A DNA stretch of 49,683 nt. It comes from Legionellaceae bacterium. GTDB lineage: Bacteria; Pseudomonadota; Gammaproteobacteria; UBA12402. Under the pieces are notes generated by a model. The model was not told the DNA's origin. It was given only the letters and a program-made list of their open reading frames with translations, and made no database searches. The stretch lies in NCBI GenBank assembly GCA_002707695.1, contig PANR01000024.1:1-49683 (forward strand). The letters run 5' to 3'. This document shows, one piece after another, positions 27,436 through 33,536 of this stretch. Numbering within the stretch: the stretch's first letter is position 1; every line of letters starts with the position of its first letter. The position numbers were made by a program, and so were the translations under genes.

Positions 27436-28524
27436 CTAGTCTTCATCATCCCAAGATAATGAGCCGCCGGTTTGATATTCGGTGACACGTGTTTCAAAGA
27501 AATTTTTCTCTTTTTTCAGATCCATGACTTCGCTCATCCAAGGGAATGTGTTTTCCGCACCTGGATATTGCTCTGGCAAACCAATCTGCGCACAACGACG
27601 ATTGGCAATAAATTGCAAATATTCGCGGAAACTCTCTGCATTCATGCCAAGAATACCGCGCGGCATCGTATCAACTGCATATTGATATTCAAGTTCAACA
27701 CCTTCGCGAATCATGTTAATTGCTTCTTGTTGAAATGCTTCAGTCCACAAGCTTGGGTTTTCTAATTTGATTTGATTAATGACATCAATGCCAAAGTTAA
27801 GGTGCATGGATTCGTCACGAAGAATATATTGAAACTGCTCTGCAGTTCCAACCATTTTATTGCGACGACCCATTGATAAAATTTGCGTAAAGCCCACATA
27901 GAAGAAGATGCCTTCAAAGATGACATAGAAAGCCACCAAGTCACGCATGAGTCGTTGATTCGCTTCAGGTGTGCCAGTATGGAAGGTTGGATCACCTAAA
28001 CTTTGCGTATACTTCAATGCCCATGATGCTTTGCGTGCTACTGAGGGGAGTTCGCGATACATGTTAAATACTTCGGCTTCATCCAAACCTAAACTTTGCA
28101 CAACATAAGTATAAGCGTGTGTGTGAATGGCTTCCTCAAACGCTTGTCGCAACACATATTGGCGGCATTCAGGATTAGTGATGTGACGATAAACAGCAAG
28201 TACTAAGTTGTTAGCCACCAATGAATCAGCTGTTGAGAAAAACCCAAGGTTTTGTTTGACGATACGGCGTTCGTCTTCCGTTAGACCATTGGGGTCGCGC
28301 CATAACGCGATGTCGGCAGCCATGTTTACTTCCTGAGGCATCCAATGGTTTGCACAGCCTACGAGATATTTATCCCAAGCCCATTCATATTTGAATGGTA
28401 CCAGCTGATTGAGATCAGCTCGGCAGTTAATAATTTTTTTATCATCAACTTGAATGCGCGCGGCGCCCATTTCTAGCTCTTCTAAGCCGGTTGCACCGCC
28501 TTCGGTTGCTACTACTTCTGACAT
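27436..28524 (-). CDS. nrdB: Ribonucleotide reductase class Ia beta subunit
   Basis: EEAIHTHAY (radical Tyr present), FEGIFF, RDESMH and [10 protein letters not shown]; ATG at 28524 after AGGAGA. Confidence 0.97.
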
Positions 28525-28550
28525 ATCAATTCTCCTAAATATCAATTAAT

Positions 28551-31500
28551 TTATTGGCACGCTTCACAATCTGGATCGTCAATCGAACACGCCTTTGGCG
28601 CTGCAGAGCCCACTTCGGCATCCGTTTGTACAGCGTTTAGCGACCCTTTGCTTACCGTTGATTTTTCCATATGGCTTGCGCCTAAACTGCGTAAGTAATA
28701 CGTTGTTTTTAAGCCGCTCGTCCAAGCATGACGATAAAGACTGTCGAGTTTTTTGCCTGATGGATTAGCCATGTAGAGGTTGAGCGATTGTGATTGATCA
28801 ATCCATTTTTGACGTTTTGCGCCTGCTTTGACTAACCAGCTTGGATCAACCTCAAATGCTGTAGCATATAATGCTTTTAGTTCTTCAGGAATACGATCGA
28901 TGCGTTGAACGCTACCATCATAGTATTTTAGATCATTGACCATCACATCATCCCAAAGGCCGCGAGATTTTAAATCACGAACCAGATAGGGGTTAACGAC
29001 AGTAAACTCACCTGACATATTCGATTTAACATATAAATTTTGATAAGTCGGTTCAATAGATTGTGAAACACCGCAAATGTTAGAAATGGTGGCCGTTGGT
29101 GCAATGGCCATCACATTAGAATTACGCATGCCTTTTTTAATTTTTTTGCGCAAGCTTTCCCAATCTAAAGTGGTTTCTTGATCCATGTCACAATTAACGC
29201 CGTTTCGTGCATCAATGACGTACTTGACTGAATCAATCGGTAATACACCTTGATTCCATAATGACCCTTCAAAGCTTTCATATGCGCCGCGTTCTTGCGC
29301 CAGCTCTGCAGAAGCTTCTAATGCATAATAACTGACGTACTCCTGATAGCGATCAGCAAATTTGACAGCTTGCTCTGATGCGTAAGGAATACGTTTGCGA
29401 TACAAGCAATCTTGAAAGCCCATCACGCCCAAACCGATGGGGCGGTGTTTTAAGTTAGAATTTCTTGCTTGCGGGATAGTGTAGTAATTGATGTTGATCA
29501 CATTGTCTAACATGCGAATAGCTGTTTTAACCGTTTTCTTGAGGCGTTCAACATCAAATCGATTGTTGTCGTCCATATGTTGAGGTAGGTTGATGCTGCC
29601 TAAATTACACACGGCGACTTCTTCTTTAGACGTGTTCAATGTGATTTCAGTACACAGATTTGAGCTATGCACAACACCGCTATGGCGTTGTGGCGAGCGT
29701 AAGTTACAAGGATCTTTAAACGTAATCCATGGGTGGCCAGTTTCAAACAACATGCTGAGCATCTTGCGCCATAACGCAAGGGCGGACACCACTTTGTAAT
29801 TATTCATTTCGCCGCGCCGCGCTTTTTCTTCATAAGCGAGGTAGGCTTTTTCAAAATCTTTTCCGTACAGGTCATGTAACTCTGGTGCTTCATCAGGGGA
29901 GAAGAGCGTCCAGTCTTGTTTGTCATGAACACGTTGCATAAACAAATCGTTAACCCACGCTGCCGTGTTCATGTCATGCGTACGACGACGATCATCGCCT
30001 GTGTTTTTGCGTAGCTCTAAAAAGTCTTCAAAATCTTTGTGCCAAACTTCGAGATAAGCACACACAGCCCCTTTGCGCTTGCCGCCATTGTGAGCTAGCG
30101 CGGCAGTTGTCATATAACTTTCGTCACCTTCAACCTTTAAATCATAGACGAATGGAACGGGGACGATAGGGTTAATTGAACGTAGGCGACTAAATAGCGT
30201 TTTGCCCCACACAAACCAATTGCGTTTTTTAACAGCTTGGCAACCAACGAGCTCGGCAATTTCTGGCACAGCTGGAATGCGTAGATCATATGCCTTAGTT
30301 TTGCCGTTAAATTCGATTCGTTCACCATTATCGCGAACGCCTGTATGGGAGTTTTCTCTTTCGCGATATTGACCAGCGCAAGGAATGCCAAGGCGCAGTA
30401 ATTGATATCGCAATCCTTCTGCGAGCGATGTGGACGTGTTGGTGAAATAAATTTCTTTGCCGCGGCTGACACCACCATCTGTTTCAAGCAGCCCTTTGAT
30501 TAAGGCGAGCGTTTGTGATTTTGGCAGATGACTAAACCGTCTGGCGATATGTTTCTCCTTGTTGCTGTGGTAGATGTCATCTCGCGTAAATGGTAATGCA
30601 GATTGGCCAGCGCTGACAAATTGTCCGGTTGAACCGTCACGCATTAATCCTTTGCCAATAGACCAACGCACTTGTTGATAGTTTTTGCCTCGATTGGTTA
30701 CCCAATAATGAATGCCGCGATTTTTTAAATATTCGCGAACAAACACTAAGTGTTCATCTTGCTGTGGGTTGCCAGAGACGCCCCATTCATGTTCGGATAA
30801 ATGCCCGTCTCCTAGCAAAATACCATAAAGACGCGCATCTTCTTCGGTAAAGTGCTCAACAGGGACAATTTCTTGTGGAATAGTTTGTCCAATGTAATCG
30901 TTTGCTTTAAGCTCGCCAGCGTCAACCCATGCCGTCATGAGTTTGCCGCTTGTCAGTTGGGCAAGTGTACGATCAATGCTTTGTTCGCGCGCCACCTGTT
31001 GAATGGCCCAAATAGGATGGCCTGAAGTTACTTTGATTGGCTTAATTGAATGTTTAATATTGAGCTCAACCATCGGATCAGTTTGGTTATAAAGCATTTG
31101 ATCAAGCACTTCTCGGTATTCGCCGCGTTGGCCTAATACCAAGTCACCTTTTTTAACATCCCTGATGGCTTTGATGCCGTCGGCGGTGTAGAGCAAAGTT
31201 TCGGGTGAAAAACATTGATTCACAGCGATGGCAGTCGCATCAGCAACGTTGAGGAAGGGAACCACGCCCTGCGACCTGCCATTTGTGCCATGAATATGTG
31301 CGCCCATCGCGCGAACAGATGTCCAGTCATTACCAAGGCCGCCGGCGTATTTAGACAGTAATGCATTGTCTTTAATCGCGCCGTAAATGCTATCAAGGTC
31401 ATCGCTCACGGTTGTTAAGAAGCAGCTAGATAATTGCGGACGTTGTGTGCCTGCATTAAAAAGCGTTGGCGTTGAGCTCATAAAATCAAATGTAGATAAT

Positions 31501-32543
31501 AAGTTGTAGAATTCAATAGCGCGTGCTTCGCGATCTTTTTCTTCAACGGCCAAGCCCATCGCAACACGCATGAAAAATGCTTGGGGCAATTCGAAACGTA
31601 TGTTGTTGTGATGAATGAAGTAGCGATCATACAGTGTTTGCATGCTGAGATACGTAAATTGATGATCACGTTCGGGCATTAATGCTTTGGTGATTTTGTC
31701 GAGATCAAATTTGAGTAATTCATCGCTGATGCGCCCAAGCTCAACGCCTTTTTCTAGATAAGCGCGAAAGTATTCGCCATAGAGTTCAAACATTTCGGCA
31801 AAGGTTGCATTGGTGGCAACACCTAAGTAAGTCAGCGCTTCGCTGCGCAGTTCATCAAGCAATAAACGAGCGGTGACTTGGCTATAGTTCGGATCACGCT
31901 CTACAAATGCGCGTGAGGTAATGATCAAAGCTTTGCTGACATCGCTTTCCGGCATGCCATTATACAGGTTACGTTGCACTTCTTTTAGGATGACCTCGGG
32001 ATCGACGTCAGTGAGTTCTGCGCAGGCTTCTTGCACAACAGTTTGCACACGTTCGTAATCCAGCGGCGCTGTTGCACCATCGCTTAGCATCACATCAATG
32101 CTAATATCAGTTTTTGGTTTAACAACAGCTTTAGGTGCTGCATCTTCTTTGCGTGCTTTGTGACGCTCTTCACGGTAAAGCACGTAAGCGCGCGCTACTT
32201 TTTGTTCGCCAGCGCGCATTAATGCTAACTCAACTTGATCTTGTATAAATTCGATATGCACAGCACTGTCGGTGAGTGCGCGTGCCTGTAAGGTTTTTGT
32301 AATGTCTTGAGTTAATTCGTCGACTTTTTCGTGTATGCGGCGCGAGGCAACAGCGGTATTGCCTTCAACCGCTAAAAATGCTTTGGTGACTGCCACTTTA
32401 ATTTTGCTTTCTTCATAGGGCACGCCCGTGCCGTTACGGCGAATAACGCGTAGCTCACCAGGCTGAGAGTTATTCGTATTGATAGTGTTAATGACTGGGG
32501 TGGCTTCGGCTGTGCTAGCATCAGCTGTAGTTACTTCGCTCAT
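28551..32543 (-). CDS. nrdA: Ribonucleotide reductase class Ia alpha subunit, two ATP-cones, interrupted by an intein
   Basis: TPTLFNAG, LSSCFL, SSNLCTE, AVCNLGS, APTATIS, TTYYLR and C-terminal CEAC; ATG at 32543 after GGAG. Confidence 0.97.
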   Translation of the reverse strand: MSEVTTADASTAEATPVINTINTNNSQPGELRVIRRNGTGVPYEESKIKVAVTKAFLAVEGNTAVASRRIHEKVDELTQDITKTLQARALTDSAVHIEFIQDQVELALMRAGEQKVARAYVLYREERHKARKEDAAPKAVVKPKTDISIDVMLSDGATAPLDYERVQTVVQEACAELTDVDPEVILKEVQRNLYNGMPESDVSKALIITSRAFVERDPNYSQVTARLLLDELRSEALTYLGVATNATFAEMFELYGEYFRAYLEKGVELGRISDELLKFDLDKITKALMPERDHQFTYLSMQTLYDRYFIHHNNIRFELPQAFFMRVAMGLAVEEKDREARAIEFYNLLSTFDFMSSTPTLFNAGTQRPQLSSCFLTTVSDDLDSIYGAIKDNALLSKYAGGLGNDWTSVRAMGAHIHGTNGRSQGVVPFLNVADATAIAVNQCFSPETLLYTADGIKAIRDVKKGDLVLGQRGEYREVLDQMLYNQTDPMVELNIKHSIKPIKVTSGHPIWAIQQVAREQSIDRTLAQLTSGKLMTAWVDAGELKANDYIGQTIPQEIVPVEHFTEEDARLYGILLGDGHLSEHEWGVSGNPQQDEHLVFVREYLKNRGIHYWVTNRGKNYQQVRWSIGKGLMRDGSTGQFVSAGQSALPFTRDDIYHSNKEKHIARRFSHLPKSQTLALIKGLLETDGGVSRGKEIYFTNTSTSLAEGLRYQLLRLGIPCAGQYRERENSHTGVRDNGERIEFNGKTKAYDLRIPAVPEIAELVGCQAVKKRNWFVWGKTLFSRLRSINPIVPVPFVYDLKVEGDESYMTTAALAHNGGKRKGAVCAYLEVWHKDFEDFLELRKNTGDDRRRTHDMNTAAWVNDLFMQRVHDKQDWTLFSPDEAPELHDLYGKDFEKAYLAYEEKARRGEMNNYKVVSALALWRKMLSMLFETGHPWITFKDPCNLRSPQRHSGVVHSSNLCTEITLNTSKEEVAVCNLGSINLPQHMDDNNRFDVERLKKTVKTAIRMLDNVININYYTIPQARNSNLKHRPIGLGVMGFQDCLYRKRIPYASEQAVKFADRYQEYVSYYALEASAELAQERGAYESFEGSLWNQGVLPIDSVKYVIDARNGVNCDMDQETTLDWESLRKKIKKGMRNSNVMAIAPTATISNICGVSQSIEPTYQNLYVKSNMSGEFTVVNPYLVRDLKSRGLWDDVMVNDLKYYDGSVQRIDRIPEELKALYATAFEVDPSWLVKAGAKRQKWIDQSQSLNLYMANPSGKKLDSLYRHAWTSGLKTTYYLRSLGASHMEKSTVSKGSLNAVQTDAEVGSAAPKACSIDDPDCEACQ
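30087..31214 (-). mobile_element. Intein (376 aa) with LAGLIDADG homing endonuclease; +1 extein residue is Gly
   Basis: AVNQ|CFSPETLLYTADG; block B VTSGHP; LYGILLGDG and IKGLLETDG; block F VYDLKVEG; ALAHN|GGKRKGA. Removing it restores the conserved AVNQGGKRKGA. Confidence 0.95.
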
Positions 32544-32709
32544 ATGTTTGACTCCGTGTGTTATGTTTAGGTCCTGCCAGACCAGCAAAACAAAATGCAT
32601 CGCATGCCGGCTTGGTTTTGCTCTGTTTTTGAAGTGACTTCACCCATGAAATACCTTTAAGCGGTTGTATTTACAGGCGAAATTGCACTCGGTATCTGTC
32701 CTGATACAA

Positions 32710-32930: not shown

Positions 32931-33536
32931 TTAGCCAAGTTGCTCAGCTACAAATTCCCAATTCACTAGTTGCCAAAAGGCTTCAATGTATTTGGGTCGT
33001 GCATTACGATAATCAACGTAATAAGCATGTTCCCACACATCGCAAGTCATTAATGGTTTTAGATTATCCGTCATAGGATTGCCGGCGTTGCTGGTGCTCA
33101 CGATTTTTAAACTATCACCGTCTTTAACTAACCAAGCCCAGCCGGATCCAAACGTGGTGGCAGCTGTTGTTGAAAACGTTTCTTTGAATTTGTCGAACGA
33201 ACCAAAATGCTTATTGATGGCATCAGCTAATGCGCCGGTTGGTTCGCCGCCACCGTTAGGTGACAAGCTTGGTTCGCCGCCACCGTTAGGTGACAAGCAA
33301 TGCCAGTAAAACGTGTGGTTCCAAATTTGCGCTGCGTTATTAAAAACACCGCCATCTGCTGAGGTGATGATATCTTCAAGTGATTTGTCTTCAAATTCAG
33401 TGCCTGGGACTAGCTCATTAAGCTTGTTGACGTAAGCTTGGTGATGTTTGCCGTAGTGGTATTCGAGCGTTTCTTTAGAAATATGAGGTTCAAGTGCGTT
33501 CATTTCATAGGGTAATTTAGGCAGTTCAAATGTCAT
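32931..33536 (-). CDS. sodB: Fe superoxide dismutase with a 10-aa internal duplication
   Basis: HYGKHH, AAQIWNHTFYW, FGSGWAW and DVWEHAYY. Confidence 0.96.
   Translation of the reverse strand: MTFELPKLPYEMNALEPHISKETLEYHYGKHHQAYVNKLNELVPGTEFEDKSLEDIITSADGGVFNNAAQIWNHTFYWHCLSPNGGGEPSLSPNGGGEPTGALADAINKHFGSFDKFKETFSTTAATTFGSGWAWLVKDGDSLKIVSTSNAGNPMTDNLKPLMTCDVWEHAYYVDYRNARPKYIEAFWQLVNWEFVAEQLG
33239..33298. repeat. Perfect 30-nt tandem duplication inside sodB
   Basis: TTGGTTCGCCGCCACCGTTAGGTGACAAGC occurs twice in tandem. Confidence 0.95.

Follow-up and report, generated by a model that had tools for sequence, protein, structure and literature searches.

The nrdA gene of a Legionellaceae bacterium, which encodes the alpha subunit of class Ia ribonucleotide reductase (RNR), carries a full-size and apparently mobile intein in RNR loop 2, and this intein probably joins its two flanks at a plain glycine. 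The gene lies in a stretch of 49,683 nucleotides (GenBank assembly GCA_002707695.1, contig PANR01000024.1, positions 1 to 49,683; hereafter, the window). The element is 376 amino acids (aa) long, begins with Cys and ends with His-Asn, and the first host residue after it (the +1 position) is Gly. We favor, with moderate confidence, a sequence-based reading in which Asn first cyclises and the alpha-amine of Gly then attacks the Gln-Cys thioester. According to textbooks and reviews, inteins insert before Cys, Ser or Thr, since splicing needs such a residue. The features on which the argument depends are as follows.

28551-32600, minus strand: nrdA precursor open reading frame (ORF), open throughout, encoding a class Ia RNR alpha subunit with a listed length of 1349 aa
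31215-32543, minus strand: N-extein, ending in AIAVNQ and containing the SSC cysteine (equivalent of Escherichia coli C225), from translation and profile search
30087-31214, minus strand: intein-like element, 376 aa, from Cys1 to His375-Asn376, from translation, alignment, AlphaFold2 (AF2) model and Foldseek
30885-31214, minus strand: N-terminal Hint part of the element, about residues 1-110, containing Cys1 as well as T63..H66 of block B (31017-31028), from alignment and AF2 model
30228-30884, minus strand: predicted LAGLIDADG homing endonuclease domain, about residues 111-329, from Pfam, fold match and conservation
30801-30830 and 30471-30503, minus strand: the two LAGLIDADG motifs, LYGILLGDGH and LIKGLLETDGG, respectively
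30087-30227, minus strand: C-terminal Hint part, about residues 330-376, containing Asp358 of block F (30141-30143) as well as His-Asn (30087-30092)
30081-30086, minus strand: Gly+1 and Gly+2 codons (ggc ggc), the first C-extein residues, in RNR loop 2
28551-30086, minus strand: C-extein, starting GGKRKGAVCAY, with NLCTE, AVCNL and a C-terminal CxxC tail, from translation and profile search

The original prediction, made from the letters of the window, had placed a 376-aa insertion between Gln and Gly of loop 2 (E. coli Q294|G295), and the translation, 119 intein-less relatives and a profile search all agree with this placement. The element corresponds to precursor residues 463-838, runs from CFSPETLL to TTAALAHN, and is flanked by AIAVNQ on the N side and GGKRKGAVCAY on the C side. 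At the N-junction, Gln-1 (caa, 31215-31217) is followed by Cys1 (tgt, 31212-31214). The C-junction reads His (cac, 30090-30092), Asn (aat, 30087-30089), Gly+1 (ggc, 30084-30086) and Gly+2 (ggc, 30081-30083). Among the 120 proteins closest to the C-extein, all 119 intein-less NrdA sequences read an uninterrupted AVNQGGKR(K/Q)GA, so the borders of the element are unambiguous and no shifted parse is possible. The profile search maps the junction to 294|295 of E. coli R1 and to about 442|443 of Pseudomonas aeruginosa NrdA (5im3), the closest solved structure to the window NrdA. This position is loop 2, a surface loop. GC content is uninformative on a foreign origin (0.455 in the element versus 0.438 and 0.468 in the exteins).

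Judged from its sequence, the window NrdA is a class Ia RNR alpha subunit of the Pseudomonas (PRK07207) type. It scores 1638.9 bits against NCBIfam PRK07207 (cut-off 965), and Pfam finds Ribonuc_red_lgC, lgN and ATP-cone in the precursor, including two ATP cones. The catalytic-residue motifs are present in the translation as had been predicted, with SSC upstream of the element and NLCTE and AVCNL (the equivalents of E. coli C439/E441 and C462) downstream of it. The listed ORF begins 19 codons upstream of the second Met (32544-32600, minus strand). Translation probably starts at this second Met (MSEVTT..., at 32543), and the hydrophobic extension MHFVLLVWQ... upstream of it is probably untranslated.

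Within the element, codons and alignment confirm the predicted Cys1, block B TxxH, two LAGLIDADG motifs with their acidic residues (D136 and D246), block F Asp and terminal His-Asn, followed by GGC GGC. Pfam LAGLIDADG_3 (PF14528) matches above its cut-off (E 9.5e-11), and Hint_2 and Intein_splicing match under theirs. An AF2 model of the element, built with 66 sequences, has a pLDDT of 91 and a pTM of 0.89 and is compact, with the two ends close together. Searched with Foldseek, this model matches PI-SceI (1ef0, E 2e-19), TliVMA (7qsu, TMq 0.63) and PI-PfuI (1dq3, E 2e-13), and also I-DmoI and I-SceI. By its two acidic-residue motifs and modeled fold, the element would be a double-motif LAGLIDADG homing endonuclease, and DNA cleavage is predicted. 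A phmmer search of the element against solved structures gave no match. The profile used for structure searches was built from aligned full-length proteins and is hence dominated by the RNR exteins; with this profile, matches were obtained to PI-PkoII (E 2.7e-8) and gp41-1 (E 4.3e-6), and a weak one, over about 70 positions of this general profile, to 2lwy, which is a bacterial intein-like (BIL) domain (E 1.5e-4). A 116-aa ORF overlaps the element in another frame (30137-30487, minus strand); its open frame is its sole support, and it is probably spurious.

The features that define class 1 inteins can be compared with these data directly. A Hint fold in frame, Cys1, block B TxxH and a C-terminal His-Asn are all present, and the +1 residue, which in this class is Cys, Ser or Thr, is Gly (ggc). 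The element is class 1 intein-like in fold, size, endonuclease, site and behavior, and departs from the class at the defining +1 residue. Because +1 is Gly, the branched intermediate of class 1-3 inteins cannot form. We propose, from sequence and by analogy, a route of three steps, whose order, efficiency and final ligation are to be read as a model. Cys1 would first undergo an N-S acyl shift, aided by the block B Thr and His, to give a Gln-Cys thioester. His375-Asn376 would then cyclise to a succinimide, which would release the Gly+1 alpha-amine at a time when the active site still holds the thioester. Finally, the unhindered Gly amine would attack the thioester (aminolysis) and form the native Gln-Gly bond of loop 2. 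Glycine is the least hindered acceptor for such a reaction, and off-pathway cleavage in part is likely.

The Gly+1 junction is shared by a large family. When the element alone served as query, a word-indexed search picked out 976 proteins (E <= 0.001) from 4003 candidates. The best 120 of these 976 are all NrdA, 61-76% identical across the whole element, and Methylococcus and Methylomagnum proteins are among them. All 120 read Asn|Gly-Gly, preceded by His in 119 and by Lys in one, which makes a sequencing error at Gly+1 implausible. A scan of one genome per species gave 80 loci (57-66% identical), and the C-junction is His-Asn|Gly-Gly in each of the 74 that could be parsed, including locus L092, whose N-junction was misparsed by the pattern. 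The carriers include Azotobacter vinelandii NBRC 13581, Azorhizophilus paspali, Thiothrix, Thiolinea and Chromohalobacter, as well as metagenome-assembled genomes labeled Burkholderiales, Blastocatellia/Pyrinomonadales, Opitutaceae, Thermomicrobiales, Armatimonadales and Omnitrophota; the named loci span Pseudomonadota, Acidobacteriota, Opitutaceae, Thermomicrobiales and Armatimonadales. Since all 119 intein-less relatives also have Gly-Gly, the invariance of Gly+1 in this close family is set by the host.

More distant alleles are less uniform. Searched exhaustively with HMMER, a set of representatives clustered at 50% identity yielded 1372 matches (E <= 0.001). The C-junction is visible in 82 of the best 150 of these, and reads HN|GG in 52, HN|SG in 20 and other contexts in 10, a few of which sit in non-RNR proteins. 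Every host that was sampled is a class I alpha subunit, with 7 of 7 exceeding the cut-off of TIGR02506. We pooled 272 proteins and kept 175 in which one match covers both ends with at least 12 flanking residues. In these same-site elements, +1 is Gly in 158 and Ser in 17; the invariance of Gly+1 that had been considered at the outset therefore holds for the close family and not for distant alleles of the site. The catalytic residues are nearly constant, with Cys1 in 174 of the 175, His-Asn in 173, and the block B His and block F Asp in all. By residue, conservation is 99-100% for C1, 96-100% for T63, 100% for H66 and D358, and 99-100% for H375 and N376; in the endonuclease, it is 96% for D136 and D246 and 100% for K221. 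Cys1, Thr63, His66, Asp136, Lys221, Asp246, Asp358, Tyr367, His375 and Asn376 are conserved in the Gly+1 and Ser+1 groups alike.

A tree of 62 of the 175 elements (representatives and 9 close ones), which came from a quick search and is to be read with care, places the Ser+1 rows in one well-supported clade of 15 and a pair nested among Gly+1 rows, and requires at least two state changes at +1. Divergence among the 45 Gly+1 rows is deep, their terminal branches measuring 0.1 to 1.7 changes per site. Given this depth and the 158 to 17 ratio, the sequences indicate that a missing +1 nucleophile is the old, stable and majority state at the loop-2 site.

Two further observations concern the form of the elements. 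P0319 (1327 aa) carries a same-site element whose first residue is Ser in place of Cys and after which the host continues with Gly-Ser (NQ|SFTGD...HN|GSKRKG). No other element of the 175 has Ser1, and the branch of P0319 is long. In addition, some carrier NrdA proteins have a second Hint element downstream (P0041, P0081, P0093, P0101 and P0111, 1685-1710 aa, and a 1680-aa frame in G237:C25), as seen from extra Pfam Intein_splicing/Hint matches and about 350 extra residues.

Ligation could also go by another route, with the help of a host factor, of a cellular thiol or of a side chain close by (Cys+9) acting as a relay. The window has Cys+9, as do 119 of its 120 closest homologues (best 120 of 976), and the alpha-amine route is itself one that we infer for the Gly+1 RNR family. 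The residue is just as frequent in intein-less alleles (114 of 119), which marks it as a host feature, and it is replaced by Phe in one carrier (P0067/L029). Two other Gly+1 hosts, P0246 and P0247, have no Ser, Thr or Cys anywhere in positions +1 to +10. Cys+9 was accordingly rejected both as acceptor, a role that the original prediction had called unlikely on other grounds, and as relay, and the spread across phyla speaks against a dedicated host factor. We consider ligation by any of these other routes improbable. The alpha-amine of Gly+1 is the only nucleophile common to all Gly+1 hosts, and for this reason amine attack is the best supported route.

Selection on the element was examined in 53 loci with an element of exactly 378 aa, from which 18 greedily chosen, non-overlapping pairs of 91 were used. 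The median ratio of nonsynonymous to synonymous substitution (dN/dS) over the 18 pairs was 0.11 for the Hint part, 0.10 for the endonuclease and 0.06 for 200 codons of flanking extein. By these sequence comparisons, the Hint and endonuclease halves are both under purifying selection. A LAGLIDADG acidic residue is lost in 9 of the 158 Gly+1 elements, and the Hint core is retained in 8 of these 9. Shortened elements of 179, 289 and 328 aa also still span Cys to His-Asn|Gly-Gly. A decayed endonuclease beside a retained splicing domain is a classical sign that the host depends on Hint chemistry.

These data bear on a reading in which the element is retained for good, either because NrdA works with a 376-aa insert in loop 2 or because the Hint or endonuclease part has gained a host function. 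Strong long-term purifying selection on the endonuclease is unusual for a purely selfish homing cycle and fits such a role, as does the compact model with both ends close together. However, with an inert insert there would be no cause for Cys1, the His of block B, the Asp of block F and His-Asn to persist in 173 to 175 of 175 elements, or for this core to persist in 8 of 9 elements with a dead endonuclease and in the mini forms. Judged by sequence, the Ser+1 relatives are canonical, and there is no column of the intein by which the Gly+1 elements could be told from them. Moreover, loop 2 must reach both the effector and the substrate site of RNR. Permanent retention is therefore very improbable in our judgment. 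Of the three outcomes that had been listed at the start, retention of the Hint core despite endonuclease loss disfavors the inert insertion; noncanonical splicing is favored, and cleavage into two chains stays under consideration.

Evidence for host need came from a survey of 400 scored genomes of the window's class. Eleven of them carry the element, the window's own genome included, and neither of the 2 other genomes of the window's family does. In three of the 10 other carriers, namely G101 (100% complete), G207 (99%) and G072 (96%), PF02867 matches no locus but the interrupted nrdA, and NrdD (PF13597) was not detected. Five of the 10 have a second RNR, and the remaining two, G269 and G373, have small extra fragments. 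In G373, the fragment is an isolated 137-aa frame (C12:35552-35818) that matches the C-terminal RNR barrel (profile 435-523) about 6 kb from nrdA. In G269, the match to distal nrdA (C6:188939-189244) lies in another frame and spans two TGA codons, which could be a frameshift or an assembly error. In the window genome no second RNR was found, in an assembly that is only 61.8% complete.

The survey also addresses the concern that the window nrdA is a pseudogene, or Gly+1 a miscall. The low completeness of the window genome leaves room for another RNR missing from the assembly. Against this stand the open 1349-codon frame, exteins that are 86% and 93% identical to intein-less relatives, and the same Gly-Gly in all of the best 120 of 976 homologues and all 74 resolved loci. 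In the family, sole-RNR carriage in three near-complete genomes, together with low dN/dS, refutes the notion of a dead allele that had been raised as a refuting outcome. A dead allele is excluded for the family and unlikely for the window, and we give a dead or misassembled window gene hardly any credence.

The element and its host gene have different histories. The element is absent from the NrdA nearest to that of the window (P0123; 86% identity in the N-extein and 93% in the C-extein) and from the next four. Its closest counterpart (P0003; 75.5% identity) sits in an NrdA that is only 57% (N-extein) and 71% (C-extein) identical. Presence or absence also varies within one genus, g212, in which G366 and G210 differ, one having a full element (E 2e-169) and the other a weak partial match (E 5e-5). 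The discordant intein and extein identities, the patchy distribution and the spread across phyla indicate, at the level of sequence comparison, that the element moves horizontally, homing into naive Gln|Gly-Gly sites. On arrival in a single-copy essential gene, such an element must restore function at once and unaided.

This demand is important for a different outcome, cleavage without ligation, in which thioester hydrolysis or thiolysis together with Asn cyclisation would leave an active, nicked two-chain NrdA of about 443 and 511 aa. Such cleavage accounts equally well for conserved Cys1 and His-Asn, for purifying selection and for the sole-RNR genomes, and the site of the junction is a surface loop. 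For BILs that lack a +1 nucleophile, mostly cleaved products are reported, and the two-chain NrdA of phage Aeh1 is described as active. The Aeh1 enzyme, however, is split elsewhere and is reported to depend absolutely on special tails, whereas a cut at the present site would leave none. The cut would also fall inside a loop that is conserved in all 119 intein-less relatives, and a working enzyme would be needed straight after invasion of a naive single-copy gene, without co-evolved aids to assembly. Loop 2 is reported to carry the allosteric specificity of RNR. No nrdA split into two genes at the loop-2 site occurs among the sequences examined, although no dedicated search was made. We regard the two-chain enzyme as rather unlikely, and as an alternative to be taken seriously.

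The Ser+1 alleles provide a second view of the favored reading, splicing by amine attack. They resemble the window element in where they are inserted ((N/D)Q|C...HN|) and in their core, fall into a single tree with it, and differ in having the canonical Ser at +1 in place of Gly. Their representative, P0296, belongs to a subfamily of glutaredoxin-fused NrdA (P0393-P0510). Of 120 rows in this subfamily, 3 weak ones and one odd parse were set aside. Loop 2 of the 91 uninterrupted members reads NQGGGKR in 44, NQGGKR in 30 and NQSGKR in 17, and the intein-less relatives nearest to the interrupted alleles (86% identical) read NQGGG. Co-conversion during homing, or the loss of an intein, may have left the Ser forms as footprints. 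For mechanism, the sister clades with Ser+1 and with Gly+1 are a natural comparison.

Several points weigh against splicing at Gly+1. Canonical inteins that are mutated at +1 to Ala or Gly cleave and are not known to splice. The comparative evidence presented here is equally compatible with cleavage at both junctions without ligation. In the P0296 subfamily, +1 is Ser in all 25 clearly parsed interrupted alleles, versus 17 of the 91 uninterrupted ones (the rows are kin); this suggests, as far as sequences can tell, that a nucleophile is preferred in hosts able to tolerate it, being retained there or arriving with the element. Searched for a column with the same majority residue (>= 60%) in two Gly+1 groups and a different one in the Ser+1 group (17, 19 and 17 rows), the element has none, so no adaptation to the missing nucleophile is visible. 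A second RNR in the window genome is possible, because only 61.8% of that genome is at hand. No splicing test of a Gly+1 RNR intein was found in the open-access literature, with subscription papers and supplements outside the search. Finally, reviews, PMC4031507 among them, report that BILs give mainly cleavage products, and PMC7765530 states that type A BILs cannot ligate.

Among known systems, the closest in architecture are class 1 LAGLIDADG inteins such as PI-SceI/VMA1, TliVMA and PI-PfuI of Pyrococcus RNR. Like the window element, they are in-frame inserts at a conserved site of a replication-related enzyme, have a Hint domain with nested LAGLIDADG, Cys1, TxxH, block F Asp and His-Asn, and are distributed sporadically and discordantly with the host tree. 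Unlike them, the window element has Gly at +1 instead of Cys, Ser or Thr, and its sequence similarity to solved inteins is low. Type A BILs (e.g., that of Clostridium thermocellum, PDB 2lwy) resemble it in having a Hint domain with N-terminal Cys, C-terminal His-Asn and no +1 nucleophile. BILs are described as sitting in variable regions of non-conserved proteins, whereas the window element occupies the invariant loop 2 of NrdA. They are also described as small and without endonuclease, in contrast to 376 aa with a conserved LAGLIDADG domain. PMC4031507, citing Dassa 2004, Aranko 2013 and Amitai 2003, describes type A BILs with His-Asn and no +1 nucleophile that can splice, the freed amine attacking the thioester.

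Phage Aeh1 NrdA, named as a comparison in the original prediction, is a loose one. It is likewise an RNR alpha subunit that was broken by a mobile endonuclease and still functions, and so serves as a model for the two-chain enzyme. The Aeh1 break, however, is described as one at gene level by a free-standing HNH gene, mobE, between the equivalents of C439 and C462 rather than in loop 2, and the enzyme as one that relies on acquired tails.

Members of the Gly+1 family have been annotated before. The Azotobacter RIR1 element named in the original prediction is indeed at the same site: in A. vinelandii NBRC 13581, locus L057 shows 61% identity and has the sequence NQ|CFAPETLV...LAHN|GGKRKG. The InBase registry presumably listed the Azotobacter element as a 'BIL'; no open-access text was found that names it so. 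Genome papers call the elements in nrdA of A. vinelandii and A. chroococcum (Avin_33290, Achr_15980) and of Methylococcus capsulatus Bath (MCA2543) LAGLIDADG 'inteins'; in their accessible text, these papers contain no mention of the missing +1 nucleophile and no splicing test. No open-access paper was found on the missing nucleophile, the family size or the Ser+1 sister clade, subscription papers and supplements being outside the search. The supplement of Novikova 2016 (PMC4760082), which covers 211 bacterial RNR inteins, may include Gly+1 elements and their +1 residues.

The genes next to nrdA include its usual partner, assigned by reading the sequence, immediately downstream and in the same orientation.

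27436-28545, minus strand: nrdB, RNR beta subunit, 369 aa

An Fe/Mn superoxide dismutase ORF (32931-33536, minus strand) contains an in-frame tandem duplication of about 9 residues (SPNGGGEPSL SPNGGGEPTG).

The window element is a new member of an annotated but unstudied family. In reviews, Hint domains without a +1 nucleophile are treated as small, endonuclease-free, mostly cleaving and confined to variable proteins. The Gly+1 RNR family breaks this division between inteins and BILs, as a homing element in an invariant loop that has Gly+1 across hundreds of alleles and several phyla. BIL-like chemistry within a mobile full-size intein of an essential enzyme would be a new variant, the central claim being one that we infer from sequence. 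To a specialist, the surprise would lie in the scale and stability of Gly+1 and in the genomes with no other RNR. A broader proposal, that a large, ancient and mobile family of full-size inteins splices efficiently without a +1 side-chain nucleophile and forms a fourth mechanistic class, is offered tentatively; we are close to evenly divided on it and lean slightly against.

If only cleavage takes place, many bacteria would run a nicked two-chain RNR cut inside loop 2, which is equally unexpected. If splicing takes place, it would be an efficient natural ligation without a side-chain nucleophile that matures the only RNR of many bacteria. It would bear on intein evolution and on how elements invade sites that lack a nucleophile, and would offer a template for scarless ligation at glycine, the Cys, Ser or Thr scar being a standing limit in protein engineering. 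Overall, these sequences suggest that nature can splice proteins at plain glycine.

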